64,000 bases of DNA, taken from an uncultured Candidatus Saccharibacteria bacterium. Lineage in GTDB: Bacteria; Patescibacteriota; Dojkabacteria; JAOAGR01. Shown here in pieces: positions 1 through 64,000 of the stretch (position 1 is the first letter of the stretch; every line of letters starts with the position of its first letter). The notes beneath the pieces are model-generated. The model made no database searches and was not told the DNA's origin. It worked only from the letters and a program-made list of their open reading frames with translations. The stretch is from contig CAZDBO010000002.1 in NCBI GenBank assembly GCA_964503755.1, positions 261 to 64,260 on the forward strand, given 5' to 3'. The position numbers and the translations under genes are program-made.

Positions 1-29
1 GATTAAAATATTTATTATTAAATTTATAT

Positions 30-536
30 GTGAAGATAGAAAATTTTTTTGATTCTGTCTTATTCGAAATAAGATGTCTGGAAGTAGAGAGATTGACTGA
101 TTTGCATAAATTACTAAGGATTTTTGAAGAAAAATACGCGGAAGGACGCAGTATAAAAGAATACGTACGGATGATAGACCAAGAAAAAGATTTGTTGAAA
201 AAATCAGAGTTAGAGATGCAAGCATGTCAATATTTTTTTGATCTTTTGGGTAGTGAACGTTTTTTCTTTTATCAAAAAGGGATTTGTAATATGAGTGAGA
301 TTTATAGAAATCGTCGAATGAACTGCAGTGGGTTTTCTTTCATATTATATATTTTGCTTAATAGGTACCTAAAAGTAGAGCATTGGATAGTAGAAACATA
401 TTATCACTTTTCAAATGTTGTTAGGTTATCTAATGATTATCTGGCGTATTGCGATGGATTAGTTTCTCTTATCAAAGATTTGCGTAAAAATGAATATCTA
501 AGAAAAAGTAATCTAACTAAAAGTGTTATTTTGTAG
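30..536 (+). CDS. hypothetical protein (168 aa), no recognisable motif
   Basis: Intact ORF from the track at the window start, upstream of the decayed cas locus. No motif recognised. Confidence 0.3.
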   Translation: MKIENFFDSVLFEIRCLEVERLTDLHKLLRIFEEKYAEGRSIKEYVRMIDQEKDLLKKSELEMQACQYFFDLLGSERFFFYQKGICNMSEIYRNRRMNCSGFSFILYILLNRYLKVEHWIVETYYHFSNVVRLSNDYLAYCDGLVSLIKDLRKNEYLRKSNLTKSVIL

Positions 537-1201
537 ATCCCATACCAAATTCGACACTTGCATACTAGTTATCGATTGAAAGCAACAATTATCGAAACTA
601 TTTTTATGCATTTTTAAATGAATACAGATTGAAAAAACAATTAAATCTAAAAAAATTGATTTTTTTAACTAGAGAAACATTATGAGTTACACCGAATAGT
701 CCGTTGAGTATAATTAATTTGGTGATAACTAATCTAAAAAAGACTATTTTAGAAAAATATAAATTAAGTTTATCAAAAAAAGAAATAAAGATAATTGAAA
801 AATTTTATAAGTCTTGGATAAGAATTTCTATAAAAAGAAACTGGGGATATATGTTTATGTATAGATGTTGCGGGGTTTAGTCATTATTATCACTTAATTG
901 GTGATAAAGATAAAGCGTTTTATTATCCTAGTCTTGTGATGAATTATATAAATCTGGTATGACAAGCTGTACTGATGCATATTATCGTTACGAAGAAGAC
1001 AAAAAAGAAATGCTTGAATTTAGTATAAATTTTGTAAATAAACTAGTTAGAAAACCATTTTATAAAACTATTACATAGAAATGTGTGGATATTTTGAGAT
1101 AATTTAATCACCTTGCGTAAAAAACAAAAATACTCTAACATACATATTGGGACATGTGGTTATAAAAATAAGGTATTAGGTTTTGCCTGATACCGTGACT
1201 C

Positions 1202-1227
1202 GCTCCCAGCTTTGCTCGGAGCTTTTT
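1202..1227 (+). terminator. putative rho-independent terminator (imperfect GC-rich hairpin GCTCCCAGC/GCTCGGAGC followed by TTTTT)
   Basis: Seen in sequence at 1202-1227. It closes the 690-nt ORF-free stretch 540-1200 on the + strand and abuts the stop of the minus-strand ORF ending at 1227. Confidence 0.3.
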
Positions 1228-1895
1228 CATTTTATGAATTTTCTGGATAGTAGTCTTTTACTATGTTTAATAGAAGTTTGAACCATTACATCTGGTAAGA
1301 TTCGGTCCTTGTTTGTATATATAATCTTAAAAGCACTATCATAGAATCGAAGTTCTTCAAATTGTTCAGTACCTGAGTTTTGAGGTGTTAGTCCAAGTTT
1401 TTCGTCGATAATCTGTATGAGATATGAGATTTCGGGATAGCGTACTATCCTACCAACATCATATGCTCTCATGACCTCAAGTATGTCATAACGACTAAAA
1501 TTACATTTATATTCTGGAAAAGGGCATCTACTGGCCCATAATACATGTAAAATTATGGCAATATAGATACGTGCGATTCTTTTGACTAGAATTTCAGAAT
1601 AATTATATGATTTAGATTGCTTTTCTCTAAGTACCAAATCACAAAGTATATTATTACCAATTGTACTCTTTATATCATACAAAAACAGATTGTCAGGTAA
1701 TTATTTAGGTGTTGTTCCATGTAACATTGGGAAACCGTATTCTCTAATACTATTTTCAACACAAAATATACTTGATTCAAAAGATGGATCAACTATTTGT
1801 TTGAATATTAAAAACATTTCAGCCGCTGTACGTATGAAATGAAAATATTTTGGAGACTTTCGATGGCTGAGTATGGATTTTCTGGCATAATAAGT
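1227..1895 (-). pseudogene. disrupted gene of unknown function (frameshift near 1700, two in-frame stops upstream)
   Basis: The track ORF 1227..1682 begins at TTG with a stop 6 codons upstream. Another minus frame continues 1704-1895 as MPENPYSAIESLQNIFISYVQRLKCF*YSNK*LIHLL.... Confidence 0.3.
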
Positions 1896-1973
1896 GTGTA
1901 TAATTACAAGCTATAAACTTGTTTTTGTAAAAAATTTTAAAATCGTATTAAATTTTTTATATAATTGAATATT

Positions 1974-4900
1974 ATGAAATTCAAAAACGTAAACACAAAA
2001 AATTTTGACTATCTAATAGCCCTAGATTTGGCCATTACATCAGTGGGTTAGGCGGTGATAGAGATAGACTAAGAAAACGCTGACGATGAAAAATATGATG
2101 TAAAAGGATTGATAGATGTGGGAGTGAGAGTCTGGGATAGTATTGAAGATGAGAAAGGCAATTTACCATTACACAAAAGAAGAGAAGCCAGAAGTCTCAG
2201 ACGAATAATAGACAGAAGGCAAAAAAGACTTAGAAAAATCAAAAATATTTTTATCTAGAACTATCCTAATGTATTTAAAGATAATGAATATTTTGAATCG
2301 CAAGAATATCTATCTACAGATCCCTACGTTGCAACAGTGAAAGGATTGGATGAGGCCTTGACTTTATCAGAGTTAGCTAGGGCAATATTGCACCTTGCAA
2401 AACGAAGAGGATTTAAGTCCAATGCTAAAGACGCTAAAAAATCTGAAGAGAGTAAAAGTGAAACCGGTTATAAAAGTGGCATACAAAAAACAGAAGAAAA
2501 ACTTTTGAGCGGTAATTATCGTACTATCGGAGAGATGCTTCTAAAAGATGAAATGTTTTCTGAACGAAAAAGAAATGAAGGTGAAAACTATATCTTTGGT
2601 GCAAAAAGAGAGATGATTTTGCAAGAGCTAAAAATGATTTTAGATAAACAGGTTGAACTTGGTGTAATAAATCGTGAAGTTGCAGATTAGCTCCATGGTA
2701 CGGTTGAATATCAAAGACCGTTTGCTACTTCAGAAAACATCAAAAAATTAGTAGGATACTGTGAAATATTTAAGGACGAACTTAGAGCACCTAAGTATGC
2801 TCCTAGTGTAGAATTTAGGTCTTTATGGGAAAAAATAAATAATTTAACATGGTAAGACAAAAGAGGCGATAAGTGGGAAAGCGGATATTTGACAGATGAT
2901 TTGAGGTAGAAATTGTTTTAGCTTGCTTTAGAAAAAAAGGAAATTACTTATTATGACATTAGAACAAGGGTATTAGGATTAAGTGACGAATATGAAATTT
3001 TCTTTAAATCATGTACATATTTTGATAAGGTAAAAAGCTCTAAAAAGAGTAAAAGCAAGAAATCAGAAGGCGAGTCACAAGTTGAAGTCGGACAAGAAAC
3101 TATACAAAATGATAAAGCGAAAAAATCAGAAGAAGATCAAGAACGATTGATACGTATACCCACAAAAAAGCTGAAAGTAGAAAATTTTTGCTCTGAAAGG
3201 ATATCATTTGTTAAAAAGTGTGAATTGCCAGAGAATAAATTTAGTTCACTTTTTGCTGAGCTTGATAAATATGATACTGCAGACAAATTGGTGGAGATAA
3301 TGAATTATTCATATACTGATGATGAACTCAAGCAGAATCTTGCTAATGCGGGTTTGGATGAATATTTTGAATATCTCAAAGAAATATATGCTGATTTTTC
3401 GGGTACTTCAAATCTAAGTATCAAAGCATGTAGAGAAATGTTACCTCTACTTAGGGATCAGGCACTCAAGTATAGTGAGGCAGTAGCACACATTAGATTA
3501 AACAATCCCCAAGAGGCAGGATCAAGATATGATCAATTGCCAGAGGTGGCATATGATGATATTCGTAACCCAGTAGTCCATAGAGTCATTGCACAAACAA
3601 AAAAAGTCATCAACGCACTTATTCAGAGATATGGAAGACCGAGTTTGATTCATATCGAACTTGCTAGAGAGATGAAATTACCAAAAGATAAACGAAGAAA
3701 ATTATCTATCCAAAATCGTGATCGTGAAAGTAAGAATAAATAAATCCAAGCAGAACTGGAGAGATTGGGTATACAAGTCAACGGTACAAACATTACAAAA
3801 TTTAAACTCTGGAAAGAATAGGATCACAAATGTGCCTATTCAGGACGTGAGATCACAGTTGATGATTTCATTGCGAGTACTGAGATAGATGATATTCTGC
3901 CATTTAGTCGCAGTCTTGATGACAGTATAAACAACAAATTACTGGTTTTTGCCCAAGAGAATCAGAACAAACGTGATAGAATACCTTTTGAATATTTTGG
4001 TCATGATACTGAGAGATGGGAACGTATGAAATAGATCTGGATGAATGTAATGAAACTTCATCCATCAAAACTTGCTAGGTTATTGACTGAAAGCTACACA
4101 CAAAGAGATCTAAATTCATTTTTACAAAGAGATTCAAATGATACTAAATATGCCTCTAGATTTATCAAAAATTATTTAGAAAACAATCTGCTATTTAAAG
4201 AAAGTAAAAAACTCAAAAGACGTGTTTATACCTTCCAAGGTTTGCTTACAAGTCTTCTTAGAAAAAGTTATGGACTAACAAGGATAGAGAAGAAAGTCTC
4301 AGACATCACGCCTTGGATGCGGTAGTGGCGGGTGTAGCAAATCAAAAAATGCTGATGAAATTTTGTGAATGGTATAAAATCAAAGAAAATAGACAGAAAG
4401 TATTGGATAAAAGCGTTGATCCCGAATCTATCAAATTTGCTCCTGAGCCATGGACAGATTTTAGAGATGATGTAAATATACGAATATTTAGGGATAATCC
4501 CGTTGAAGAACTTAGAGAAAAAGGAATATTGGATAAACATACGGTAAAGAATATACTAGATTTATACGTCCGCTTTTTGTCTCTAGGATGGCCAAATACA
4601 AGATTACTGGTGCTATACATGCAGAGACAATCAAGTCTATCTGTGAGATTAATGGAAAAGAGTACTTTATAAAAACGATTAGTATTACAGATCTAAAAAA
4701 ATCTAATTTTGAAAAAGATCTCAATTCAAAAGATCTAGAAGGTATGATCATCGCTGATCCTGAGACTATTAGGGTGCTTAGGGAGAGGCTAGAGGAATGT
4801 AATTGGGATATCAAGAAAGCATTTGAAGAGCCTATATACAAACCATCACGAAATTCAGAACGTAAAAATAGAATAAAAAGAATAAAAGTCGTGGACGGTC

Positions 4901-5374
4901 CAGCGGTAACTTATGTAACACTCAAAAGAGGTAAAGGGAAAGGTTATGCTGATAATCGTAGTATGGTACGTGTAGATATATTTAGAAAAAATGGTAAATA
5001 TTACTCAGTACCAGTATACGCTAGTTGGATAGAACGCTATGATCTACCTATACAATATACACCACTGAAAAATAAAAAACACGTTGATGATACACTTGAA
5101 TTTTGTTTTAGTCTGTATCCAAGGGAGTTAGTATATTTGAGTGATGGAGAATATAGTGAATATGTTTACTATGTTAGTATGAACTCTTCAACTGCAGGTG
5201 ATTATGTTTTTGTAACCGATGATTTAGGTAGATATACAAAAAATAAATTTTTAAATAATGATATACGTAGGGTTGGATATATACTTAAAAGCATTACCAC
5301 ATTAAACTATTTAAAAAAGAAATATGTTGACGTTTTAGGCTTTATCCATGATATTAAAAAATCGAGCGTAAGCC
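1974..5374 (+). pseudogene. cas9: type II-C cas9 pseudogene (Nme/Cje-like Cas9, about 1130 codons)
   Basis: All hallmark Cas9 segments are present in order: RuvC-I (1974-2048, ending LDLAITSVG at the TAG), the Arg-rich bridge helix, REC segments matching Nme Cas9, the IRNPVVHRVIAQTKKVINALIQRYGRPSLIHIELARE motif, the HNH domain and the C-terminal PAM-interacting domain. Frame 0 is kept from 1974 to about 4280 despite in-frame stops at 2049 TAG, 2070 TAA, 2256 TAG, 2691 TAG, 2853 TAA, 2907 TAG, 2919 TAG, 3741 TAA, 3819 TAG and 4032 TAG. Frameshifts follow near 4280 (frame 0 to 2) and near 4575 (frame 2 to 1). The HNH catalytic His is replaced by Asp. Confidence 0.8.
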
Positions 5375-6199
5375 ATTATTTTAGTGATTATGGGAAATTA
5401 AATATCAAAGATAAAAGACTTGTTTATACAAAAGACGATAAAGAGATAATAGATATACCAATCGATGATATATCCGCTATAGTGATAGAAAGTAGACAGA
5501 TGATTTTGACGTCTTATCCAATATCTATTGTGCTAGTCATGATATTTTGATCATATTCTGCGATGAAAAACATCTATCAAATGCGATAGCTATACCATTT
5601 CAAAGTTTTGGTCGCCAAAGACTCAGAGTAGAGAAGCAGATTTCTTTATCTTTACCATTCAAACAACAGTTATGGGCACGTATAGTCAGACAAAAGATTA
5701 TTAATCAGGCAAAATTATTAGATAAACTAAATACCGAAACATCAAAACAACTTTATGCTCTGGCCGATGATATCAAGTCTGGTGACAGTGATAATAAAGA
5801 AGGATTAGCATCTAAAATATATTTTAGGTCTTTGTTTGGCAAAAATTTTCTAGAGAAGATGATTCGCATGCGGTCAATAGTCTTTTAAATTATGCGTATA
5901 GTATAGTCAGAGGTTCTATCAGTCGTACTTTGGTGGCTCATGGTTTTATACCATCTTTAGGTATTTTTCATAAGAATCAATATAACAATTTTAACCTTAG
6001 TGAGGATCTGATAGAGCCGTATAGACCTATTATTGATAGTTATGTGATAGATTTATTGAATAAAGGGATGAATAATATCCAAAGTAAAGAAGTAAAATTT
6101 GAATTATTGAAAATATTCGAATGCAGAGTATTATATAGTGATAAAAAAGTTAATATAAAACAAAGTATTGATATATTGTGGATACACTTGTTATGAGTA
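5375..6199 (+). pseudogene. cas1: cas1 pseudogene (type II Cas1, two frameshifts)
   Basis: The N-terminus is read in frame 1, fused to the cas9 frame with no intervening stop. The IIFCDEKHL...NKEGLASKIYFRSLFGKNF segment is in frame 0 (5547-5888). The LNYAYSIVRGSISRTLVAHGFIPSLGIFHKNQYNNFNLSEDLIEPYRPIID segment is in frame 2 (5885-6199). Shifts sit near 5545, next to a duplicated-looking atgatattttgatcatatt, and near 5882 at a TTTT run. Confidence 0.7.
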
Positions 6200-6285
6200 T
6201 CAATGGGCAAGATCCCAAAATACTTTTATTACTAGAGTTGATATTCCTATAAAGCTCTATATTATAATTTTTGTAGTTTTAATTT

Positions 6286-6606
6286 ATGAGTAAGTGTATG
6301 AGGATACTTGTTTTATTTGATTTGCCAGTTGTTACTAAAAAACAACGTAAGATATATGCTCGATTTAGAAAAGCACTTATCAAAGATGGTTATGATATGA
6401 TTCAGTTTTCGGTCTACCAGCGTATCTGTAATGGGCTAGATATGGCAGACAAATATATGCAACGACTCGAGGAGTATGCACCAAAAAGAGGTGCTATAAG
6501 AGCTATGATACTTACTGAAAGACAATTGAAGTATATGTGTGTTATTACTGGTAAGACAAAACCAAAAGAAAAATTGATCAGTGATAATCAATGTGCGTTA
6601 TTTTAA
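6286..6606 (+). CDS. cas2: CRISPR-associated endoribonuclease Cas2
   Basis: Intact 106-aa ORF. The MRILVLFDLPVVTKKQRKIYARFRKALIKDGYDMIQFSVYQRIC sequence matches the Cas2 N-terminal pattern; the true start may be the internal ATG giving MRIL at 6298. Confidence 0.8.
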   Translation: MSKCMRILVLFDLPVVTKKQRKIYARFRKALIKDGYDMIQFSVYQRICNGLDMADKYMQRLEEYAPKRGAIRAMILTERQLKYMCVITGKTKPKEKLISDNQCALF

Positions 6607-6659
6607 TCAAATTTTTGTTGAGTTTATAATGTGAATTTTCTTATTGGGACAAACAAAAA

Positions 6660-6682
6660 GTTGTGGTAGAGTTTACCACAAC
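6660..6682. other. perfect 9-bp inverted repeat GTTGTGGTA-gagtt-TACCACAAC, 54 nt downstream of cas2
   Basis: Seen in sequence. No U-tract follows, so it is not a canonical terminator. It is the only repeat-like element where a CRISPR array or tracrRNA would be expected. Confidence 0.3.
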
Positions 6683-6858
6683 TTGGGAGATATGGGAATA
6701 AAAATAGGATAGAGACCCATGGGTTAGCTTATGAGTCTGTAAAATTATATTATATAAATACAAATTTAACAGAAACCAGTAGACAAACACATTCTTTGAT
6801 TATATTTGTATTTATAGTACAATTATGGGTTAATAAAATTTTTGCATGTTGTATAAGA

Positions 6859-7440
6859 ATGTTTTATGCGAGATCAATTCAACCTTATAATACATTAAAA
6901 TCCGTGCATAGGTTCGAGGCGGCATATCGCTTGGATTCAAAAGATATAGATAGGGATTTGCTTAAAATAATAGAAAAAACTAATATCGAGTATTTAATCA
7001 AAAATGCCACAAAAAAGAAAATTCCAAAACCAGAATTTTTATATCACGGATCACCTGTCAGTGGAATAAAAGTTTTAAAGCCATCAAGTCGAACACGACC
7101 GGGTGTATTGAAAAATAAAGTTTTTCGAGCAGTGTATGCCACAGATATACTTAGCTATGCCTGTGCGTTTGGATTTCCATGGTCAAATGGTGAAGGGTTT
7201 GAACTTATTTTCACAAACGATAAAGTTGAGCTCGGCGTGCCAAAACAATACAAGGATAGGATACAAAAACCACTTTTCGTATATGTTGTCAAGGGAGAAT
7301 ATTTTGAATTATTACCAGAAGCTGCACCAAAAGGACATAATTATTTTTCAAAAACACCAGTACCTGTAGAAAGAGTAACAAAATACAAAAGTGTAAAAGA
7401 TGCCCTACTAAAATTCGAATGTAAAATTTATTTCATTTAG
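6859..7440 (+). CDS. hypothetical protein with LYHGS motif; possible ADP-ribosyltransferase-fold (Tpt1/PARP-like) protein
   Basis: Track ORF 6796..7440, with a likely start at ATG 6859 (MFYARS). An EFLYHGSPVSG motif is followed by aromatic and acidic residues, as in H-Y-E ADP-ribosyltransferases and Tpt1/KptA. This is a weak, memory-based assignment. Confidence 0.3.
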   Translation: MFYARSIQPYNTLKSVHRFEAAYRLDSKDIDRDLLKIIEKTNIEYLIKNATKKKIPKPEFLYHGSPVSGIKVLKPSSRTRPGVLKNKVFRAVYATDILSYACAFGFPWSNGEGFELIFTNDKVELGVPKQYKDRIQKPLFVYVVKGEYFELLPEAAPKGHNYFSKTPVPVERVTKYKSVKDALLKFECKIYFI

Positions 7441-7552: not shown

Positions 7553-8116
7553 CTAAACTATGAAAATGTTTTTTTTATTTAAATATTTCTTAGGTATAAT
7601 CAATCTGCCATTCCCAACAATTATATCTATTTCGGGATTTAAATGATTAATTTTTGTAATATATTTTTCTTGTAATTCATTAGAAAAATAGTTTACTGGA
7701 TAAATATGTTTTATTTTACCAAAAACTATTTCTTCTTCAGTTGGAGGCTCGTCTATTGTAAATAAACATCCAAAATAGGTAGGTATAATTTCTAGAGCTG
7801 TTTTTATAACATCAATATACTGGATTATGTTCTTTTCACCAGATTTATAATCTGAACCCAAAATAAGATCAAGGCCAATACTCATTGACCATACTAGTAA
7901 ATTTTCTGAGTGTAAGGACAAATTTATCCAAAATTCAAAATGTGGTCGCCAAAAATTTAGTGTATTTCTTTTTTTTGCTAAGATCAGTGGACATATTTCT
8001 TTTTTTACAGGACCCAGTTTAGTAAAAATTATGAGTGCATATTGGGGATTTCCGATAGAAAATATTACTCTTGCTGGACCAGGTATTAGGATAGGTTTTT
8101 CTACTGAAAATGCACA
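7553..8116 (-). CDS. hypothetical protein (open frame of 188 codons; first canonical start is TTG at 7921)
   Basis: The track ORF is 7553..7921, but the frame stays open upstream to 8116 with no ATG/GTG/TTG. It overlaps the + ORF 8031..8288 on the opposite strand. It may be a 5'-truncated remnant. Confidence 0.25.
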   Translation of the reverse strand, partial: CAFSVEKPILIPGPARVIFSIGNPQYALIIFTKLGPVKKEICPLILAKKRNTLNFWRPHFEFWINLSLHSENLLVWSMSIGLDLILGSDYKSGEKNIIQYIDVIKTALEIIPTYFGCLFTIDEPPTEEEIVFGKIKHIYPVNYFSNELQEKYITKINHLNPEIDIIVGNGRLIIPKKYLNKKNIFIV

Positions 8117-8518: not shown

Positions 8519-9484
8519 ATGTCTTACAGACAAAATAATGTGACAATGTTGGTTGCAAAAAGTGATTTAGGAGGACGTATTTTTGGATCATCTCATGCTT
8601 TTGAAGCTCTTAAAAGATTGGCCGAAAAAAGAAATCGCAAAATTTTTGAAACGCTCAAATGTATTGAGATTGAACCAGAACATAATAATCCAACAGAAAA
8701 CGATCCATTTGCGAAGTATATAAGTCAGGTTTATGAGTTAAACATAAAACTAGCTTGTGAAATTCAAAAAGTTTTTTCTATTCAAAATAATTTAATTGTT
8801 TTATCAGGAAATCATAGTTCTGCTATAGGAACTATTGCTGGAATAAAATCAGCATTTTCTGATAAAAGATTGGGGGTAATATGGATAGACGCTCATGCAG
8901 ATATTCATTCACCATTTACGACTCCCAGTGGAAATATACATGGTATGCCTCTTGCTTGTTCTTTAGGTGAGGATAACTTTGATTGTTATAAAAACAAACC
9001 GGATTTAGACACTATCAAATATTGGGATAAACTTAAAAATATTAGTAGTATTTGTCCTAAAATTTTTTATGAAGATTTGGTATATATTGGACTTCGCAGT
9101 TATGAAGAGGAAGAAGCATATTTGATTAGAAAAAACAATATAAAAGTATTTACGGTATCGGATGTAAGAAAAAAATCAGTAAAAACTATTTCAACTGAGA
9201 CTCTAAACTATCTAGAAAATTGTGATTTGTTGTATGTTAGTTTTGATATTGATAGTTTAGATTCAAATATAATCACCGGTACAGGATGCCCTGAAACGAA
9301 CGGATTATATGAAAAAGAAGCAAAAGATATTGTTTATTATTTTTTACAAAGTCCAAAAGTAGCTGTTTTTGAGATAACAGAAGTCAATCCTATGCTTGAT
9401 AAAGATGAAAAAACTGTAAATATAGCGTTTGATATTCTAGAAAATGCTATAAATCATATTTACATTAAATCAACTGTAAAGTAA
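8519..9484 (+). CDS. rocF: arginase (ureohydrolase family)
   Basis: SGNHS matches the GGDHS-type motif. WIDAHADIHSPFTTPSGNIHGMP matches the arginase signature DAHxD...SGNLHGxP. The SFDIDSLDSNIITGTGCPETNGL motif is also present. Confidence 0.7.
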   Translation: MSYRQNNVTMLVAKSDLGGRIFGSSHAFEALKRLAEKRNRKIFETLKCIEIEPEHNNPTENDPFAKYISQVYELNIKLACEIQKVFSIQNNLIVLSGNHSSAIGTIAGIKSAFSDKRLGVIWIDAHADIHSPFTTPSGNIHGMPLACSLGEDNFDCYKNKPDLDTIKYWDKLKNISSICPKIFYEDLVYIGLRSYEEEEAYLIRKNNIKVFTVSDVRKKSVKTISTETLNYLENCDLLYVSFDIDSLDSNIITGTGCPETNGLYEKEAKDIVYYFLQSPKVAVFEITEVNPMLDKDEKTVNIAFDILENAINHIYIKSTVK

Positions 9485-9585: not shown

Positions 9586-10056
9586 TTATGGAAGTATGTT
9601 TCTCACCCACGGTTGAAATGGTTCAGGAAAAAGTCCAACAATAAAATCGATTGCAGAATGAGCTGATTCATCCGATATAATCCAATCGGGTATTGCATCA
9701 TGCATATAAACTTGTATGGCTAATTGGGCGATTACAACTGATGAGAGAGTAACTGGCCAAGAGAGGATATTGTTTGTCAATGTAGCAACTCGCCTTCCAA
9801 AATCTGCAGTATTTTCAGTATTTATATTAAGTCTTTGAGATACATAATTACATAAAAATTTAAGTACCAATGGTGCAAAAAAGCTGATTCCGATCCTAAA
9901 TAATGATTCGTATTCTGGATAATTTGTAGATAAATAATATGTGGATGCTACCTGTGGCGCGGCCAATATAATAGCACGAGAAGCAAGTGAGATTGTTTGT
10001 AATGTGGTGAGTAATACTTTTTTTAGGCATTGTTCTATAGGGTGCATCATATTCAA
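9586..10056 (-). CDS. hypothetical membrane protein
   Basis: 156-aa ORF with hydrophobic segments and no recognised motif. Confidence 0.3.
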   Translation of the reverse strand: MNMMHPIEQCLKKVLLTTLQTISLASRAIILAAPQVASTYYLSTNYPEYESLFRIGISFFAPLVLKFLCNYVSQRLNINTENTADFGRRVATLTNNILSWPVTLSSVVIAQLAIQVYMHDAIPDWIISDESAHSAIDFIVGLFPEPFQPWVRNILP

Positions 10057-12543: not shown

Positions 12544-13662
12544 ATGAAGCTCAGATTATTACATAAGTGGGCCAAAAGTCTATTAGTTAACAATTATTTT
12601 GCATTTTGTGTAGTTTTATTCATATTATTAATTAATACTGTATTATTGCTTCAAAACGGCTCATGGTTATTTGAATCTCAGGTCCTAGAAAACTATGGTG
12701 ATCAACGTTTATATTTTGAGTTGGCATACAATATTTTGTCGGTAAACAACACTAAATCTCTTTATACTCTAGGCTATCCAGTATTTTATATACCTTTTAT
12801 TATTTGGGAAAATTTCACCAATGATTGGCGAATGATTATGAATGAAGTTATTTTTATTCAAGCTTTTGTTATTATACCTTTGGTTTTCTTTTTGATTTTT
12901 CGAAAACTAGATTATAAAAAGTCATTAATTATTGCACTCATTATTGTGTTTTATTATTTTAATAATATACTGTTTGCACCAGATCCCTTACTAAAATATA
13001 ACTTTTTAGGATTAATTCCTCTATCAGAGCCTCTAGCGATTCTATTATTGTTACTAAGTTATTGTTTTTATTATAAGCTTAAGTCGGTTGAATTATTATC
13101 TAAAAAAGAAATGTTGAATTTTATATTACTAGGTTTTATTTTTGGGTTTACTATTCTTATAAGAACTACTACGGTGATATTGCTTGTTCCGATAGTTTTG
13201 GATATGATTTTTTCTAAAAATTTTAAGAAGTTTTTACTATTGGCATTAGGTGCATTTATCATTTATATTCCACAACTTATTTGGAATCAATGGGTTTCTG
13301 GTATGTTCTTTTTCAATGGATATATTTGGTGGGAGTATGTGAATATGTCAAACAACATGGTTTATAAACAGGCATTATATGGATTCGCAGAGCCTAATTC
13401 TTTCTCTTTATCATATTTTTTTGTAAATGTTTGGAAGTTGATACCCTCATATATTGTATTGATATATCTTTTATTATTTATTAGACCATGGAAGACTAAA
13501 TTTGAAGTATTTATTATGATTTGTACAATTTTGTTTATTGTGATTCATCTGGCATACTGGTGGTCTGCAGCGTCCAATCTTATAGATCGATTTTTACTGC
13601 CTAATTTTTTTCTATTGTTTTTTGTTTATGGTCAAAGATTACGAAAATCAAAAGAGATATAA
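12544..13662 (+). CDS. polytopic membrane protein, putative glycosyltransferase partner (GT-C-like)
   Basis: 372 aa, multi-transmembrane. It is divergently arranged with the GT2 gene and resembles the architecture of 10211..11683. Confidence 0.35.
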   Translation: MKLRLLHKWAKSLLVNNYFAFCVVLFILLINTVLLLQNGSWLFESQVLENYGDQRLYFELAYNILSVNNTKSLYTLGYPVFYIPFIIWENFTNDWRMIMNEVIFIQAFVIIPLVFFLIFRKLDYKKSLIIALIIVFYYFNNILFAPDPLLKYNFLGLIPLSEPLAILLLLLSYCFYYKLKSVELLSKKEMLNFILLGFIFGFTILIRTTTVILLVPIVLDMIFSKNFKKFLLLALGAFIIYIPQLIWNQWVSGMFFFNGYIWWEYVNMSNNMVYKQALYGFAEPNSFSLSYFFVNVWKLIPSYIVLIYLLLFIRPWKTKFEVFIMICTILFIVIHLAYWWSAASNLIDRFLLPNFFLLFFVYGQRLRKSKEI

Positions 13663-13960: not shown

Positions 13961-14317
13961 TTACTCATATTGCAAAATTTCCCACCCTTTTATATTTTTT
14001 CTATTTTTGAATTCGTCAGGTACTTCTTCTTCAAACTCTATTTCAAATCTGGAACGTTTTTCTGTCCATTTAAATTCAAACCAGACTTTAGTATGACCGT
14101 CTAAGTAACATAAGGAAGAATATCTGTATATTATACCTTGTACAGGTGTTATATATTCTTTTTCTCTTATGCCATTTTCATCTGTACGAATACGTTTTAG
14201 ACCAGTGTATTCATCTTTTACGAAACTAATACTAACAATTCTTAATCTTGGCATTAGGGCATAGGCTTCCTCATTTGATAAAGATAACCTATATTCCGTA
14301 CTCAGTAAATTATACAA
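13961..14317 (-). CDS. hypothetical protein
   Basis: 118-aa ORF with no motif recognised. Confidence 0.3.
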   Translation of the reverse strand: MYNLLSTEYRLSLSNEEAYALMPRLRIVSISFVKDEYTGLKRIRTDENGIREKEYITPVQGIIYRYSSLCYLDGHTKVWFEFKWTEKRSRFEIEFEEEVPDEFKNRKNIKGWEILQYE

Positions 14318-14469
14318 GCTTGTTGTTCAAATAAAAAGTAAATTAGACATATATTTAATTTATTGTCTGTGTCTTTTTATAATATAAATACCCTAGCTCT
14401 GATATTACAGTCAAAATAATCACTATCAATATTCACCAGAAATTAAATTCACTGTTATTTTGGTTCGGT

Positions 14470-16775
14470 TATTATCATCTTCAGTTTGTACTGGGGTTGT
14501 GATTATTGTGTTGGTAGGTGTCATATCTCTATCTTCTGCATTTTCTGTAGGTGTGGATGTAGGTGTCTGAGTGATTTCTATATTTTACGTTGGTGTTGGA
14601 GTAAGAGTAACTGTTGGAGTAGGTGTGTTGGTACCTATACTATTTGCAATAATTTTAACCGAAGCTATTGCTACATCACCATCAGAATCTATTACTTTTC
14701 CAATACATATATATTCACCAGTATTTGGTATGTTTATATTGTTAGATGTAAATGTAGTAGATGTATTATTATTTGATGTTCCAGCACATGTTCCACTAAA
14801 TGCATAATTGTATGTGCATTACCAGATATTGTTTGAGAGATGACTATTCTGAATGCTGTATTAATATCTATATACACTATGCCATCCATATTCGATGCAG
14901 GAGATAAAGCATATAAAACAATTAGAGGATTAGTGTCATTTGTTGGTGTTGGAGTTGGTTTTGGAGTCGGAGTTAAGGCTGGACTTGGAGTTGGAGTTGA
15001 AGTTGGTGATGGCATAGTATTGATTACTATGTTTTTATTTCCGCCAAGCGAATTTGCACTACCAGAATTTGGTAATGTTAGTATCGCGTTATTTAGTACT
15101 GAATCTTTTATGCTACCACCAGCGAGAGATAAAACATGTACATTTGTATAATCTAAATCTGCAGTATTATCTCCTGATGCTATTGTATATGTAAATGTCA
15201 AAGTATTGCTACCAGAACCAGAAGAATATGTTGCACTACCTCCACTGTTTAAGGTTAGTGTAGGTGTATCTGTTACGTTTACATTTTCGTTAAATACAAC
15301 TTAAATTGATATTGTAGCTCCAACTTCGTATGTACCATTAGTAGCTGATGATGTGACATTTGTTATTATTGGAGTACAATCTAGAGTATCTCCGTTTATT
15401 GTCCAATTATTTGGTGCATTTATTAAAGTGTTTCTAGCTGCTACAGCATTACATGACATATCAGCGACATTACTTATATCCCAAGACCCTATATTTTGAT
15501 TAAAAGATGTGGCATCAGAAAACATTAAATACATATCGTTAACATTACTAGTGTCCCAAGAACTGGTTGGTTGATTAAAAGATATGGCTCCATCAAACAT
15601 AAAGCTCATATTCGTCACACTAGATGTATCCCATGATCCAATTGGCTGATTAAACGATGTAGCATCCTCAAACATACTATTCATATCTGTAACATTACTA
15701 GTATTCCAAGAACCGATTGGTTGGTTAAAAAAAGTTGCACCCGCAAACATACCTATCATGACAGTTACATTACTAGTATTCCAGGAACCAATATTCTGAT
15801 TAAATGACACTGCACTTTACTTTGAAACATCCATGCCATATTATTAACACTACTAGTGTTCCAAGACCCTATTGGCTGATTAAAAGATATGGCTCCCGCA
15901 AACATACCAGACATATTAGTAGCATTACTGGTATCCCAAGATACTAATGGCTGATTAAATGACAGTGCATTAATAAACATACCGGACATATGAGTTACAC
16001 TACTAGTGTCCCAAGATCCAATTGGTTGATTAAAGGATAGTGCACCAGAAAACATGTCAGACATATCAGTAACATTGCTAGTATCCCATCCACTAATATC
16101 TTGATTAAATGTTTGAGCATTTTTAAACATGTCAGCCATATCAGTTACTTACTAGTATCTCAATTGCCAATATCCTGATTGAAATTTGAAGCATTCATGT
16201 AAACCCCAGTCATATCATTGATATTTGTTGTGTCCCATGAATTCATTGCAGCATTAGTTGTCAAAGAAGTTGCTACATAAAACATTTGATACATATTTGT
16301 AACATTAGACAAGTTAGGTACATCTGTAGCATTCAACTCCACATTTTCGCATCCGGGAAAAGCTCTTGACATACTCTCCCAAGCTATAGATGATCCCCAT
16401 TGATCAATAGATAATAGTTTTAACCTGTCACCTGCATTGTTGAAGAATATTCTTGGAAACGTTCCAGTTATCCATATCTGATAAGTTCCAGGTGATGAAT
16501 AAGTGCATGTTACATTGCCGGTTTGATTTACATGTTCATTTGTACTATCACCATCAGTCTACATTGTAGCTGTATCCTCCACCTGCTGTGGTAGGTATAG
16601 TAAACTGGTTATTAGCACTGGCACCTGGATTATCTGTTCGAACCGTGATCTTGAATGCATTTGGATTTGCCTATGCTACATTTTCACCACTGTGAAAGTA
16701 AAATATGGCTGATAAACCGATGAATGATAAAATAAAAAGGATCAGCTTAAAATTAAAATTGATCTTAGATATATA
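14470..16775 (-). pseudogene. DUF285 (PARCEL / Mycoplasma-type repeat) surface protein, fragmented
   Basis: About 9 tandem ~26-aa repeats of the form [25 protein letters not shown] appear across ORFs 15301..15810, 15765..16139 and 16160..16372, which lie in three frames. ORF 14734..15201 (same gene, further downstream) carries a Thr/Pro linker TPTPSPALTPTPKPTPTPT. A signal-peptide-like N-terminus near 16770 lacks an ATG, and in-frame stops occur in the 16380-16700 part. Confidence 0.6.
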
Positions 16776-22480: not shown

Positions 22481-22565
22481 ATTTTTTATTTTGTTTTTTA
22501 ATATATAGTTTCTAACTCAAACTAGATTATTTTATTTTATCAAATATTTGATAATAATAATATAT

Positions 22566-46213: not shown

Positions 46214-46293
46214 AAAACGACGCCTACTTATTTTTTTTGATTATATATGCTTTAATAATTTATATTATAAATATTATAAAATAATAAATTATT

Positions 46294-47502: not shown

Positions 47503-47510
47503 AAATAATT

Positions 47511-49241
47511 ATGTGTGGAATAGTAGGAATAATATCAAAAAATAAATTTAGTGTTAAAAACTCTTTACAAAGATTGAAAAAACTAGAATACAGAGGATAT
47601 GACTCATTTGGATATTATTATGATGGAGATTTGGAGAGACATGTTGGTGAGGTAATAATACCAAATAAAGAACATTTTACAAATAAAATAATTTGTCACA
47701 CACGTTGGGCCACGCATGGTGGTGTAACTGAGAAAAACGCACATCCTCATTTATCTTGTGATAAAAAAATAGCAATAGTCCACAATGGAATAATAGAAAA
47801 TTATCAAGAACTAAAGTTTGACTTGCAAAAAAAAGGTCATATATTCACAAGTGAAACTGACTCGGAAGTGATAGCCCATTATTTTGAAGAAAAACTAAAA
47901 AATATGGATGTGTGTTCAGCGATTGTCGAATTTTTTAAAGATGTGCATGGAGAATTTGCTATTGTAATGATGATTCACGGCGACAATAATATCTATGCTA
48001 TCAAAAGAGATTCGCCTTTGGTATTAGGAACTGGCGATGGAACATATTATTTAGCCTCTGATATTTATGCTTTTTCTGACACTACAAATAATTGTATCTT
48101 TTTTGAAAACGATGAATTTGCGATAGTATCGGACTCTGATTATCAATTTTATGACAAAAATGGTAATAAAATAACAAAAAAAATACAGCAACTTGGATGG
48201 ACACAAAGCACAGAAGACAAACAAGAATATGATCATTTCATGATAAAAGAAATAATGGAAGAACCTACGGTGATAAATAGACTTATTTTCAGTTTGCAAA
48301 ATGAACAAAAAGAAAATCTAGATAAATTTATCAAAATTATTAAATCACACAAAAAGGTAACATTTGTTGCTGCAGGCTCTAGTTATCATGCATCTTTATT
48401 TGGTGTGTATTTATTTCATAAAGTAGGTATAAATGCTCAAACTCTGATTGCATCCGAGTTTGATAATTATGTAGGGCTGGATGATCAAAGTGTCGTGATA
48501 GCGATCTCCCAATCTGGAGAAACAATGGATGTAATAGAAGCGTTGAAATATGCTAAAAACAAAGGAGCAAAAATTCTTTCTATCGTAAACGTACCTTATT
48601 CTACTATTCAACGCATGTCAGAAGTATCACTAAATATCTATGCAGGACAAGAAGTATGCGTCGCTGCAACAAAAACATTTATTAATCAAGTAATTTTACT
48701 TTTGTATACTACACATACCCTTGGACTAGACATAGATATAAACACTATATCTAATCAAGTACAAAATTTATTTATAAATAAAGATAAAATAATTCAAATT
48801 GCGGAAAAAATATACAATGTAAAAGATCTTTACATACTAGGTCGTGGTATAGGATATCCAATAGCTAGGGAAATAGCATTAAAAATCAAAGAAATTTGTT
48901 ATATCCATGCCGAAGGTATGATGGGTGGAGAATTAAAACATGGTACTATTGCTCTTATAGAAAACGGAACTGTTGTTTTATCAATAATGCCAACATCCAA
49001 TCCTGCAATTTTTTCTAATACCAAAGAAGTAGAAGCAAGAGGAGCAATTGTTATTAAAATAACAAATAATAAAGATTGGCAAGGTCAAGATAACACAATA
49101 TTTATAGATACAGATGATGAAGTAATATTTTCTATATTATCAACTATTATTGGTCAAATATTGACTTATTATATCGCGCTAAAACGAGGTAATCCAATTG
49201 ATAAACCTAGAAATCTGGCAAAAAGTGTGACGGTGAAATAG
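47511..49241 (+). CDS. glmS: glutamine--fructose-6-phosphate aminotransferase
   Basis: MCGIVGI provides the N-terminal Cys nucleophile, followed by two SIS domains ending in KSVTVK. Confidence 0.9.
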   Translation: MCGIVGIISKNKFSVKNSLQRLKKLEYRGYDSFGYYYDGDLERHVGEVIIPNKEHFTNKIICHTRWATHGGVTEKNAHPHLSCDKKIAIVHNGIIENYQELKFDLQKKGHIFTSETDSEVIAHYFEEKLKNMDVCSAIVEFFKDVHGEFAIVMMIHGDNNIYAIKRDSPLVLGTGDGTYYLASDIYAFSDTTNNCIFFENDEFAIVSDSDYQFYDKNGNKITKKIQQLGWTQSTEDKQEYDHFMIKEIMEEPTVINRLIFSLQNEQKENLDKFIKIIKSHKKVTFVAAGSSYHASLFGVYLFHKVGINAQTLIASEFDNYVGLDDQSVVIAISQSGETMDVIEALKYAKNKGAKILSIVNVPYSTIQRMSEVSLNIYAGQEVCVAATKTFINQVILLLYTTHTLGLDIDINTISNQVQNLFINKDKIIQIAEKIYNVKDLYILGRGIGYPIAREIALKIKEICYIHAEGMMGGELKHGTIALIENGTVVLSIMPTSNPAIFSNTKEVEARGAIVIKITNNKDWQGQDNTIFIDTDDEVIFSILSTIIGQILTYYIALKRGNPIDKPRNLAKSVTVK

Positions 49242-49594
49242 TTGCAAAAAATTAAAAATTACTCAAACTAAGATCTGTATAATATATATAATATAAAATA
49301 CTCCTAAGATGTCTCAAACAGCTATAAAATCAGTAAAAATATTTTAATATTGTACTGATTAATTTTGAATTTACATTTATTTGATTAATGTTTTGCAACG
49401 TTTTCATGCATATCAGATCTATGTGATTGGATAATTTCTAATTTATTTCTATTAATCAAAAAGTTTATCATTTTATAAGATATCTCTAACCAAAACCTAA
49501 TTTTTATTGACTAAATATTTGTTTTCTTATAACTAAAGACAAATTTTATCAGTTCTTAATTTAGATTTTGTTTTTCTGCAAAGAATCATATATA

Positions 49595-50092
49595 TTACGA
49601 ACTTATTTTAAACCCCAATATATCCTCCATAAGTGACAGATGAGCTACATTTATAAACCATTCTTGCAATAACTTTATTAATGTACCAACAAAAAACATA
49701 AGATTTAAATCCAAATTTGAAAACATTTGATGCCAAAACAAACAGATTAAAATATTTTCAAAATAGTTTCCAAAAATTAAAAGAAACTCACGCTTTTTAT
49801 AAATAGAAAAAAGAATTGTACCAACCGTACGCCATAAAAATAGAAATGTTAGTAAGATACTATAATCTGGAAACAAAAAATATCCAATTATAAATTCAAA
49901 TGCAAAACACCAATTATCTAACCACTTATCAATAAACTGATATTGTGCCTTGCTTACTACACGATGGGCGAGTTCTACATCTATAGCATCAAGAAAAAAT
50001 CGATAAAAGTATTATAATAAAAGGAAAAATAATATAAATGGATCTTGTAAAATACGAACTATTACAATCAAATAATAACTATATTCAAATAT
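49595..50092 (-). pseudogene. CDP-alcohol phosphatidyltransferase-like remnant
   Basis: LDAIDVELAHRVVSKAQ is a degenerate DxxDGxxAR motif with G replaced by V and R by H. An in-frame TAA lies between LFFLLL and YFYRFFL. Confidence 0.4.
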
Positions 50093-50149
50093 CTGCTTTT
50101 TATGTAAACCAACCATTACATCTTTTTAAAATATATATTTCCAAAATAA

Positions 50150-50817
50150 TGTATAATCTTAAACATGAAATTTCAAACTAAAAATATACTCTTTTACATA
50201 TAATTTGTGACTACAAAATCAGTGGTCTAGAATATGGAGAAATTCTAAATCAATTCTATAACCATTTGAAAAATCCAAATGATGTAATATTTCATTTTAC
50301 CGAAGGCCGCCATTAGATACTATCGCCATAGGTTTTGTAACGGCACAATATGCGTGTGCTTATAAAAGTGGTCGCATGATAATATATGGCAATGCCGCAC
50401 CAAGAAGAGATGCAGAAAAAGCTAAAAAAGATAATAGAGATAATGGAATTTTTTATGCCAAACTAAAAAATGGAGTATAGATAATCAATGTTTATAGTGA
50501 ATATGCATTTGGATTTGTAAAATCAGATATTATTGAATTTAAAGAAGTTTATCTGTCCTGACAGTGGTTCACAATTTCGCTCACGCGATTTCTTTGCAGA
50601 GAAAATTGCACATATAATAGAACAAGACTACTCAGTATTAGGTAAAAATATCGACATTAATTCGATCCCAGAGATACCCAATAATCTGGTAGCTTGGACT
50701 GATGGATTTGGAAATATCAAAACCACAATGAGAAAATCTGACTTAGAAAAAATGGGATTAAAAGACGGTGACAGAGTAATTGTTAAATTAAATGAAATAA
50801 GTATGGAAGGATCATAG
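50150..50817 (+). pseudogene. SAM hydroxide adenosyltransferase (DUF62, SalL/FlA-like) remnant
   Basis: The C-terminal WTDGFGNIKTTM matches the iDxFGNlitn motif. Upstream, GIFYAKLKNGV*IINVYSEYAFGFVK and RPPLDTIAIGFVTAQYA are in shifted frames with several stops. Confidence 0.45.
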
Positions 50818-51044
50818 CTACAGGTGGATTTCCTGTAGATAGGGGAAAACTTGCTATAAACATAGTTCATCAGGATTTGATAATCCTTTTGTTGAACTAT
50901 TTCTTCGTGTTCACAGTATGAAAGAAAAAACTGCAGCTGAAGTATTCAATTATTCGCTAGGTGGTACACCCTTTGAAATCAGAACAATTTGAGATATTCA
51001 AATCTTTATTCTCAACAAATTACATGATATTATATATCTGTCTT

Positions 51045-61115: not shown

Positions 61116-61368
61116 ATCAATAATATCTTATACAAATCGATAGAATATTCAAGCACCTAATCGAAGTAGTTTTGAAATTTGTAAATCGCAGAATGATAGT
61201 ATTTGATTCCTTCTTTTTTTAAATAAAAGTTAAATCATACTATGTCCACCAATCTATACTGAAACACATAAATTATCTCAGTATTACTATATTTTGTCAC
61301 TAAATTTTCTGATTTTGGATAAGTATGCCCATGCAAAAGATATTTTGGTTGACATTTTTGAACATATT

Positions 61369-61806
61369 CTAATAATCCCATAAACCTTGATTTGCCAATG
61401 AATCAGGCTCATCATTTATACCGTAAGGTGGACAATGCACAAACATTACATCAACTCTAGGAAAATTCTTTAACATCTCCGAAACCTCTTCTTGTGTATA
61501 CATTTTTGCATAGCGATTGTGCTTGTACCTAACACTGCCCTCAAAACCTCCAAAAGTAAACCCATTAATTTCAAATACCTTAAGATGCATATTCATAATT
61601 CCAAGATTTTCCAAATAGCCAACAGTACAATGATTACCATATACGCCAAGTTTTGGTATATCATTTATCGATGCCAATTCGGCAATATCATACTCTTCTA
61701 AATCTCCCAATGTACATATCAAATCAACCTTATTTTTAGACAAAATGGATTTGATACTTTCTCTTGGAGGTCGATCAGAGATGGCTAGGACTTTCATTGT
61801 TAACAT
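61369..61806 (-). CDS. metallophosphoesterase (YfcE/MJ0936-like)
   Basis: KVLAISD, LICTLGDLEE, GNHC and VHCPPYG match calcineurin-like phosphoesterase motifs. Confidence 0.6.
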   Translation of the reverse strand: MLTMKVLAISDRPPRESIKSILSKNKVDLICTLGDLEEYDIAELASINDIPKLGVYGNHCTVGYLENLGIMNMHLKVFEINGFTFGGFEGSVRYKHNRYAKMYTQEEVSEMLKNFPRVDVMFVHCPPYGINDEPDSLANQGLWDY

Positions 61807-62344
61807 AATAGTAAAAATTTATTTTCTCGAAAATACTCAATACAGATAATCATACACAATTCAGTAAACTAGACAAATCTATAATATTGAAAATTTTAAA
61901 TAATCGTGTCACTCGATTTTGAAAATAAGGAATGATTTAATAATTTGTTTAATAAATAATAATAAAATCTCTAAAATTTAACAAATATTGGTTTCATCTT
62001 TATTTCAATTATTATTTTTTATTATCTTATTCTGCTTAACATATTTCTTTCTTCCAACTAACTATGTTGTTGTTTTGTTTTATATTGCACAGATATATAT
62101 CATTTAACTCAACAATATATATAATAATATATTTAACTTTAACTTTAATTTATAATAAAATGTATTCGTTCAATGTATCTAAATCATTTAGACATAAGTT
62201 TAATTTAAAAATTTTATGTCCTTTAGAATTGATAATATTACTATCGAAACTCCATATACACCAAATATCAGTAAAATTACTATTGACCGATTAAGTTTGA
62301 ATGCATTATTATATTATTGTTGAAAGCACCAATTAAAAATTTTA

Positions 62345-63630
62345 TTAGGTGATCAATCATCAAATACTGCAGGGCTATTACGTAAGAGAGTACTTGAAGC
62401 TATCGGAACATTGCTACATTTATTAACAACTGCTGACTACCGTGACCTTTCGCTTTTAGATATAACAACAAAAATTGGTGCTAAAATGGACTTAAATGGA
62501 AATTATATTATATATGATGCTGAAAATCCAATGTTATGGATGGATGAAGAAATAGGAATATAAAATTCGAAAGATATGATACTTTATATGCATCATGATG
62601 CTGATAGACCTCATATTATTCAAAATTATGATGGCCATCCTGTTTTGTGGGAACAAAATGGTATATTAAGCAAGATCGATGAATGGCATCTTGGAAAAGG
62701 TCCTTTAGATTATTTTTCTACTGCTGGTAGATATCCTTTTTCAACATATGGTTTTATTGAAATTAATAATACAGAATAAATTTCGTATATTAGTGCATTT
62801 GGTGAATTCATAAATGCACCTCCAGGAATAATAGCTCTGGTCGGTCCGAAGGATCAGAATGAGAATGAACAACCCACATTTATTACACTAAGAAACGATC
62901 AAACCAATTACAAAGCAGCCACCGAATTAACACAACAAATAGTATTAGCAGAAATAAACTCGGCCTCAACTGTAGCTGATCTAATAGGTAACACAAATGA
63001 TATAGCAGCTCACGCTATAAGAAGAGCAATTACAGATTCGTTACAATATCGACATATCGGCGATTATTCTCAAGTTATAGACCTTTTAACAGGAGGAGTG
63101 CTACCATTCAGTACTGTTAGTTCACTATTCGCTGAAAGAATACCTGTAATCCTAGAAAAAATTCATACTCAAGGTAAACAGATTAATAATACATCAAAAT
63201 ATTTCTGACGTATAAATCTCACATCAGACAAACGTACTAAATTACATGATAAAGACAGTTTAAACGATCAGGAGAGATACATGATCGTACCAGCTGGTAA
63301 AACTTTAATATCAGATTTTCAGCACGTGGACAAGTTGTGGCATTTTCACGAATGCCGTATGCAGAAAATGTTGTAAAAATACTTAATAAATTACTTGGTA
63401 GAATACCTATGCCAGTAATTCAGATAACATTCAATATGGAATTTCCAGAAAACTTAAATCGCGCACTCAGAGAAAAGTGGAGAGAATTTGCAAGTTCAGT
63501 AGCAATACCAAGTAGTTTAGAATATGAATACGTTGAAAGAATAATAAGGGCATGGAATACAAAACCTACACCTATATTTGCTAGTATAACTCGATTTCCA
63601 ATAAATGTAATAATTCGTTTTGTGATTTAG
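62345..63630 (+). pseudogene. unknown ~430-codon gene with three in-frame stops and one frameshift
   Basis: A single frame is readable from 62345 through TAA at 62560, TAA at 62777 and TGA at 63206 to 63376. It then shifts to the frame of ORF 63337..63630. The region is less AT-rich than its surroundings. Confidence 0.35.
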
Positions 63631-63708
63631 CAGATTATGCAAAAACACTCTAAAAATGACATAAAATCATTTTCAATTATCACCAAATCATGATAAAATA
63701 CGTTTTAA

Positions 63709-64000
63709 TTTATTAATAAAGATTATGGGTCAAAACTAATAAAAATAGACATATTAGCAATTGGCGCTCATCCCGACGATGTAGAGTCGGGTTGCGGAGG
63801 TACCCTAGCCAAGCTTGCTAAACTTGGTAAAAAGATTGCTATAGTTGATCTAATCAAATCAGAACTAGCAACCAATGGTACAGTGGAAGAGAGATTAATT
63901 GAAGCTTAAAATGCACGAAAGATTTTGGGTGCGCCTTGTAGAGAAGTACTTGATATACAAAACAACTTCTTTTTCAATACAAAAGAAAATCAAGATTTAA
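63709..64000 (+). pseudogene. LmbE/PIG-L-family deacetylase (BshB-like), partial, disrupted
   Basis: KIDILAIGAHPDDVESGCGGTLAK...ELATNGTVEERLIEA*NARKILGAP. An in-frame TAA at 63907 sits where Lys or Gln is expected, the ATG at 63725 is out of frame (a 1-nt indel at the start), and the gene continues beyond the window. Confidence 0.5.

Follow-up and report, generated by a model that had tools for sequence, protein, structure and literature searches.

Broken accessory genes and intact housekeeping genes in a 64-kb stretch of a Candidatus Dojkabacteria chromosome, with nonsense and frameshift lesions in similar numbers

The usual picture of the bacteria of the candidate phyla radiation (CPR) is one of anciently streamlined, dense genomes with few pseudogenes. 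In the 64-kb stretch of contig CAZDBO010000002.1 analysed here (hereafter the window; 30% GC), which belongs to a Candidatus Dojkabacteria chromosome, numerous genes are nevertheless interrupted by in-frame stop codons, by frameshifts or by both, and these include cas9 and cas1 of a CRISPR-Cas locus. This raises the question of whether the interrupted genes are truly dead and, if so, by which kinds of mutation they have died. An initial annotation, made from the letters of the sequence alone, had proposed ongoing decay that hits accessory genes, spares housekeeping genes and proceeds mainly through in-frame stops, with strong AT-directed substitution and few indels. As argued below, the interrupted genes are very probably genuine and fairly recent pseudogenes, produced by relaxed selection on dispensable genes and ordinary neutral decay in an AT-rich chromosome.

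Broken and intact genes of the window

Lesions were called by aligning each suspected pseudogene to an intact orthologue where one existed. A close relative, whose release factor 1 (RF1) is 91% identical, is the metagenome-assembled genome (MAG) "Candidatus Dojkabacteria bacterium SKW36" (JAOAGR010000010.1, GCA_026415655.1), and its loci L002 and L067 are collinear with the window across 17.4-55.4 kb at approximately 80-84% nucleotide identity. Homology searches followed by contig look-ups provided loci L068, L069 and L070, which are strains of the SKW36 species. Locus L073, and probably also L076, represents a lineage nearer to the window (PGM approximately 86-88% identical), and L072 is a third lineage used in the comparison. 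In addition, Logan contigs L001, L074 and L075 (Sequence Read Archive run SRR11582145) served as a second assembly of the same sequencing run. A codon-usage frame scan was too noisy for lesion calling, and an automatic alignment of SKW36 thrC to non-homologous window sequence (49% identity) was discarded and left unused.

At least 16 of the approximately 55 genes in the window (~29%) are broken or truncated, and they occupy 24% of its bases. The 39 intact genes comprise 38.8 kb (61% of the window) and carry no lesions at all; those with an orthologue have ratios of nonsynonymous to synonymous substitution rates (dN/dS) of 0.02-0.26, with the exception of open reading frame (ORF) 9586-10056, for which the value is near 0.9. 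The genes for ArgS, RF1, YchF, trigger factor, FtsW, ParB, GpmI, PGM, GlmS and ClpP are all lesion-free when compared with their orthologues (dN/dS 0.02-0.19). Orthologue alignment thus bears out the initial proposal that accessory genes are hit and translation, division and glycolysis genes are intact, and the broader claim of ongoing decay with that distribution is supported. The 49 lesions counted are all confined to 15.2 kb, or 28% of genic sequence (P about 1e-27 under uniform error). Lesions fall within conserved domains in the case of DUF1963, PIG-L, HNH/RuvC and Cas1 (Pfam and PDB matches), and lesion types are mixed within genes, with nonsense/frameshift counts of 10/5 in cas9, 2/4 in a SAM hydroxide adenosyltransferase (SAM-HAT)-like gene and 1/2 in a hydrolase gene. 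The hydrolase gene, the DUF1963 gene, the gene at 17900-18570 and a membrane-protein gene have intact SKW36 orthologues at syntenic positions (L002, L067). In the collinear part of the window, the fraction of sequence occupied by ORFs of 100 aa or more is 0.81, compared with 0.84-0.89 in SKW36.

The cas9 pseudogene (1974-5400, plus strand; type II-C-like) is recognised by its PDB match to GeoCas9 (E=5e-100) and by a Pfam match to HNH_4. It contains ten in-frame stops (TAG at 2049, 2256, 2688, 2907, 2919, 3819 and 4032; TAA at 2070, 2853 and 3741) and five frameshifts (-1 at 3163, -1 at 3184, +2 at 3222, and one each near 4278 and 4559). The shifts at 3163, 3184 and 3222 sit in an apparently open stretch of 274 codons and were exposed by DNA alignment to the cas9 remnant of a relative (L076), while the tblastn path of a full-length 1,129-aa homologue (P0242, 46% identity) runs through frames +3, +2 and +1. 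The remnant aligns with GeoCas9 (type II-C, PDB 8uzb) over RuvC, REC and HNH, and cas1 and cas2 then follow; unlike GeoCas9, it is non-functional, and the locus has two frameshifts in the adjoining cas1 and no detected array. The cas1 pseudogene (5377-6196, plus strand) lies in three pieces in three frames, which map consecutively to positions 2-45, 52-136 and 181-256 of the Cas_Cas1 profile (joined E=2.8e-28). An intact cas2 ORF is found at 6283-6606 (plus strand; CRISPR_Cas2 Pfam match on the Logan gene call). Repeat scans detected no CRISPR array within 9 kb of cas2, and an Rfam scan of the window detected no tracrRNA, its sole matches being three tRNAs. No close cas9 relatives were found in a metagenome scan, and a search of 1.84 billion representative proteins with cas9 returned only a 173-aa fragment (65% identity) and a full-length protein (43%). 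In genome annotation, cas9 and cas1 should be marked as non-functional. At 5362-5550 the cas9 frame overruns the end of its homologues and enters the N-terminus of cas1 (Cas1 profile positions 2-45); it appears that cas9 has lost its terminator there or cas1 its start.

The ancestral states of the lesions can be read directly in the DUF1963 pseudogene (24152-25162, minus strand; Pfam DUF1963 E=1.5e-35), which has an intact 337-aa orthologue in L067. One in-frame TAA had been noticed initially. The alignment confirms it and raises the number of nonsense stops to four, TGA at 25100-25102, TAA at 25064-25066, TAA at 24926-24928 and TGA at 24302-24304, which arose by TCA>TGA, TAC>TAA, GAA>TAA and TGG>TGA from S, Y, E and W codons. 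The gene also carries one 3-nt deletion and no frameshift.

Spectrum and origin of the lesions

Window-wide, 24-28 nonsense substitutions stand against 22-25 frameshifts, a ratio of about 1.1:1, as called against orthologues where available; a 2.2-kb deletion and a truncated lipoprotein paralogue were counted apart. The suggested bias toward in-frame stops is therefore not borne out. Premature stops account for 131 of the 346 inactivating events (38%) in Salmonella (PMC2916853). A random substitution creates a stop with a probability of 0.059-0.069 in the genes of the window, compared with 23/549 = 0.042 for uniform codon usage, and when the Salmonella odds are scaled up accordingly, about 47% of the lesions should be nonsense changes, a share from which the observed 28 of 52 is indistinguishable (binomial P=0.33). 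A nonsense share of approximately 50% is thus what is expected for a genome of 30% GC, because AT-rich codons raise the chance of creating a stop. Nor can the indels be called relatively few: frameshifts are about as common as nonsense changes, and several of them, such as those at 3163-3222 in cas9, are invisible when frames are simply read. Single-frame reading under-counts frameshifts, and lesions should be called against orthologues. The tally implies about one frameshift per 17 neutral substitutions, a rate that falls in the range suggested by the ratio of single-nucleotide polymorphisms (SNPs) to indels among the sister-species strains (8-14:1). The proposed AT-directed substitution, on the other hand, is upheld on a small sample, since GC>AT accounts for 8 of the 10 single-step nonsense changes of known polarity, compared with 37% expected (P=0.007), and AT-biased mutation in the lineage thereby receives modest support.

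It could still be proposed that strong AT-biased substitution and an unusually low indel rate make stops the dominant route of gene death. Some genes do have this appearance: the DUF1963 gene and an ORFan carry four stops each and no frameshift, the first 1,190 nt of cas9 contain seven stops and no frameshift, and a pseudogene in L072 has eight nonsense codons and four frameshifts. The excess of GC>AT changes points the same way, and 28 of 52 is above the 38% of Salmonella (P=0.02). Against these stand genes in which frameshifts dominate (nonsense/frameshift 2/4 in the SAM-HAT-like gene, 0/2 in cas1 and 0/2 in gene 17900-18570), the near-even tally of the whole window, the disappearance of the difference once composition is corrected for, and the 1:17 ratio of frameshifts to substitutions, which is typical of bacteria. 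We therefore regard a nonsense-biased spectrum as improbable.

Ordinary neutral decay would account for the even balance as follows. Selection would relax on a dispensable set consisting of defence genes, surface proteins, small enzymes and lineage-specific genes, and the relaxed genes would then gather ordinary neutral mutations. At 30% GC and with GC>AT-biased mutation, about 6-7% of random substitutions would create a stop, and nonsense substitutions and frameshifting indels would accrue at similar rates, to a total of about 3.4 lesions per kb. The housekeeping genes are meanwhile kept under strong purifying selection.

Many annotated bacterial pseudogenes have been shown to be artefacts of sequencing, assembly or binning, and assembler choice and read coverage can produce spurious stops and frameshifts (Cooley and Wright, 2024; PMC11017572). 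Like such cases, the window shows stops and frameshifts inside genes of a publicly deposited assembly, it comes from a metagenome-derived genome, and some of its 1-nt indels lie in A/T runs (A7>A8 at 35479, runs at 3163 and 3184). It differs from them in that its lesions are clustered, several per gene and in accessory genes only, which rules out a random spread regardless of function, and in that they are reproduced by a second assembler and have parallels in other samples and lineages, where the same genes are broken elsewhere along their length. The Logan contigs L001 and L074 match the window without any difference over 45892-49270 and 22343-25071, respectively, and L075 is near-identical over 4137-7078. 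Every lesion in these three stretches (9 kb) is repeated, including three of the DUF1963 stops in L074 and, in L075, the two frameshifts of cas1 and those of cas9 near 4278 and 4559. The recurrence of the cas9 and cas1 shifts in an independent assembly also disposes of the suggestion that some frameshifts are homopolymer sequencing errors, which would have left nonsense changes even more dominant. An artefactual origin is very unlikely. The sole difference within the re-assembled 9 kb is found in the cas1-cas2 spacer at ~6252, where L075 has four extra bases (ACAT).

In the CPR lineages Gracilibacteria and Absconditabacteria, UGA is recoded (code 25, UGA=Gly), and the window is similar to them in having in-frame stops within conserved genes of a CPR bacterium; the low dN/dS of the pseudogenes (0.07-0.18) and the predominance of one stop type, TAG, in cas9 could likewise be taken to mean that reassignment, suppression or programmed readthrough of stops keeps the genes functional. 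Recoding is nonetheless excluded, because TAA, TAG and TGA all interrupt reading frames, frequently within a single gene, and are restricted to some genes, which often carry frameshifts as well, because the 38.8 kb of intact genes, housekeeping genes included, contain no in-frame stop and long ORFs end at TAA, TAG and TGA in the ratio 21:7:6, and because RF1 (43470-44558, plus strand; dN/dS 0.07 against SKW36) is intact with its PVT and GGQ motifs, the residues ancestral to the stops differ both in cas9 and in the DUF1963 gene, and the three tRNAs of the window (Pro-CGG, Ser-TGA and Ala-GGC) are ordinary ones, so that the check for suppressor tRNAs and release-factor changes, made for the window only, outside which RF2 and the other tRNAs are encoded, gives no sign of stop suppression.

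Timing, parallel decay and known systems

The dN/dS values of the pseudogenes overlap with those of nearly all intact genes with an orthologue (0.02-0.19), and dS to SKW36 is about 1. Since dN/dS is low at such a distance, the values would fit inactivation within roughly the last tenth of the history of the lineage. From the ten nonsense codons of cas9, a neutral divergence of about 0.05 substitutions per site is estimated. Over 13 pseudogenes the lesion density is uniform at 3.4 per kb (chi-square P=0.85), which implies about 0.03-0.07 neutral substitutions per site for each of them. It is from such figures and from the lesions themselves that we infer the recency of the decay and relaxed selection as its cause.

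Decay of the same or similar genes is seen in the relatives. The cas9 of L076 is broken by different lesions, and at stop sites of the window it has CAG, TCA, CAT and GAA. The DUF1963 gene carries CAG>TAG in L068 and L070, and a 7-nt deletion, a +1 insertion and GAG>TAG in L073. Gene 12544-13662, intact in the window, has an orthologue in L072 that is disrupted by eight nonsense codons and four frameshifts. The decay of defence genes extends to the sister species: in L069 (11770-13395), a type I restriction-modification system is reduced to fragments, among them an 81-aa HsdM_N piece, whereas L067 (19978-21204) has an intact 408-aa HsdS. In sister lineages, cas9, the DUF1963 gene and a membrane gene have thus been broken independently. 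Because lesion density is uniform and cas9 and the DUF1963 gene have been lost independently in sister lineages, the pseudogenes might even trace back to a recent relaxation of selection in the lineage that set in at roughly the same time for all of them, caused, for example, by a host or niche shift or by a population bottleneck. We offer this tentatively and consider it rather doubtful; if true, it would provide a rare view of a Patescibacterium in active, early genome decay, as opposed to ancient streamlining.

Several observations weigh against the explanation by relaxed selection and neutral decay, or limit its reach. The dN/dS of the pseudogenes is not clearly above that of intact genes, so relaxed selection is deduced from the lesions and not measured. 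The expected ratio of nonsense to frameshift changes was obtained from rough figures (the SNP-to-indel ratio of 8-14:1 and the Salmonella scaling). The ORFan, the paralogue at 19231-19940 and the DUF285 gene were called by frame continuity, without a full orthologue, and intact alleles could coexist in the population. Finally, 7 of the 10 stops in cas9 are TAG, compared with about 25% expected from codon content (P=0.004) and with about 1 of 18 among the stops of the other pseudogenes (Fisher test against cas9, P=7e-4). This excess is not predicted by neutral decay and may be due to chance. It is not recoding, because the residues aligned to the TAG codons vary (W, Q, H, E, R or D), and no sequence context that would explain them is apparent. 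A smaller side possibility is that the TAG-rich stops reflect some history that the neutral model misses.

As in the classical cases of genome decay (Salmonella Typhi/Paratyphi, Mycobacterium leprae, Sodalis, Rickettsia), accessory genes are lost through premature stops and short indels and the core remains under purifying selection. The difference lies in the host, a CPR bacterium whose genome is already tiny, and in the absence of any visible expansion of insertion sequences in the window. In Salmonella, too, nonsense and frameshift changes are the two commonest lesion types, but 346 of 378 pseudogenes could be analysed as products of a single inactivating event (PMC2916853), whereas the pseudogenes of the window are mostly multi-lesion. 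Among the CPR, Pseudofinder assigns 5-10% of Parcubacteria genes to pseudogenes, which has been taken as ongoing streamlining (PMC11188291), and the median coding density has been reported as about 89% (PMC9166423). Pseudogenes are thus present in other CPR/Patescibacteria MAGs as well, but the window, with about 29% of its genes affected and 61% intact coding sequence, is unusually rich in them for a CPR bacterium; it may be a variable region that is unrepresentative of the genome. Its lesions, moreover, have been verified base by base in orthologue alignments, and the window offers a picture at this resolution of how CPR genes die. Only 61% of the window still codes for intact genes, and those that have decayed in it are also being lost in parallel by sister lineages, which shows that at least one clade of Dojkabacteria continues to lose genes.

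Other decayed genes and neighbouring observations

The region around the DUF1963 gene has suffered further losses. The adjacent small OmdA-like gene (23921-24147, minus strand) has a 1-nt deletion after 23972 that shifts its C-terminal end relative to L067 13013-13240. At a deletion scar (27200-27506), window positions 27448 and 27506 are contiguous and L067 7428-9678 has no counterpart. Approximately 2.2 kb is gone relative to SKW36, comprising thrC (threonine synthase), a shikimate kinase gene and most of a 254-aa gene, of which about the first 250 nt are left in the window. Between L073 (2065-2526) and L067 (11995-12455), dS in the N-terminal part of DUF1963 is 0.18, and because the value for the adjacent PGM is 0.80, this suggests recombination between the two lineages at the DUF1963 gene.

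The alpha/beta hydrolase pseudogene (35440-36155, plus strand; weak Abhydrolase_1 match) was compared with the intact 237-aa orthologue at L002 1970-2683. It carries the +1 insertion at 35479 (A7>A8), a second +1 insertion at 35497 and AAA>TAA at 35610-35612. Of the TAG and TAA reported earlier, only the TAA stands; the TAG resulted from reading the wrong frame after the two insertions. A similar correction applies to the lipoprotein gene at 44948-46213, which is in fact two tandem paralogues. Copy 1 (45461-46213, minus strand) has a true in-frame TGA at 45746-45748, aligned to Glu in the paralogue and in L002, while the TAA at 45461, also listed as a lesion, is most likely its natural terminator. 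Copy 2 (44948-45349, minus strand) is 5'-truncated, has no signal peptide and is paralogous to the C-terminal half of copy 1. The SKW36 homologue (L002 11036-11780) is split by a frameshift and at its end carries 'MSRRRFLRAASG', a signal-like sequence, for a second time, a pattern suggesting that this locus, too, is a decayed tandem array.

The membrane-protein pseudogene (49595-50212, minus strand) differs from L002 15177-15761 by a -1/+1 pair of frameshifts 30 nt apart with a stop between them, and possibly by 0-2 further nonsense codons upstream. Part of it, 49595-50011, had been described as a CDP-alcohol phosphatidyltransferase remnant with an in-frame TAA. This identification fails: Pfam finds no family, PF01066 matches neither the remnant nor the intact 194-aa protein of the relative, and in place of the motif DGxxAR...GxxxDxxxD there is only a loose resemblance ('DAIDVEFAHR'). 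The TAA codons, in turn, lie upstream of a plausible start. The SAM-HAT-like pseudogene (50038-50992, plus strand; SAM_HAT_C match E=1e-4) shows, against L002 15747-16511, single-base shifts after 50305, at 50548, after 50808 and after 50864, together with TAA at 50179 and TAG at 50478.

The gene for an unknown secreted protein (17900-18570, plus strand) has lost 29 nt after 17949 and gained one at 18257, as compared with the intact 232-aa orthologue in L067. Its tandem paralogue (19231-19940, plus strand) contains one frameshift near 19730-19827, from frame +0 to +2, with paralogous sequence on either side of the switch and no orthologue in L067. The DUF285 (BspA-like) surface-protein pseudogene (13961-16760, minus strand; DUF285 E=5e-114 on joined frames) carries about three stops and about four frameshifts according to a frame walk and comparison with L072. 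In the metallophosphoesterase pseudogene (61235-61818, minus strand), the Metallophos match spans the junction of two frames at a single frameshift near 61390.

Two genes near the end of the window had been singled out for their in-frame stops, and in both the stops are confirmed. In the ORFan (62213-63376, plus strand), the TAA, TAA and TGA noted earlier (62561, 62777 and 63206) are joined by a TGA at 62321, and the frame starts at 62213. Including the terminal TAA at 63374, this frame holds five stops among its 388 codons, compared with 21-39 in the other five frames and at least 13 in every shuffled sequence. No homologue was found at E<=0.001 among 5.8 billion proteins, and neither Pfam nor PADLOC gave a match. 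The LmbE/PIG-L gene (63709-64000, plus strand), which is cut by the window end, has a TAA at 63907 that lies inside its PIG-L match (E=8e-11). For the small minus-strand ORF at 44600-44823, also cited initially for an in-frame TAA, there was neither a homologue nor a Pfam match.

Among the genes outside the decayed set, ORF 9586-10056 (minus strand) is intact both in the window and in L072, and its dN/dS of ~0.9 may mean that it is fast-evolving, newly relaxed or not a real gene. PADLOC and Pfam gave nothing for ORFs 3-536, 1227-1700, 6670-7440 and 7553-8116. The arginase-family gene at 8519-9484 has its best matches beyond the clade among Bacteroidota arginases (50-55% identity), and SKW36 is absent among the listed hits; it is therefore a candidate for horizontal acquisition. 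The short-chain dehydrogenase gene at 21719-22480, in turn, is found in the window and in strain L068 and is absent from L067, L069 and L070, and is thus a presence/absence polymorphism within the clade.

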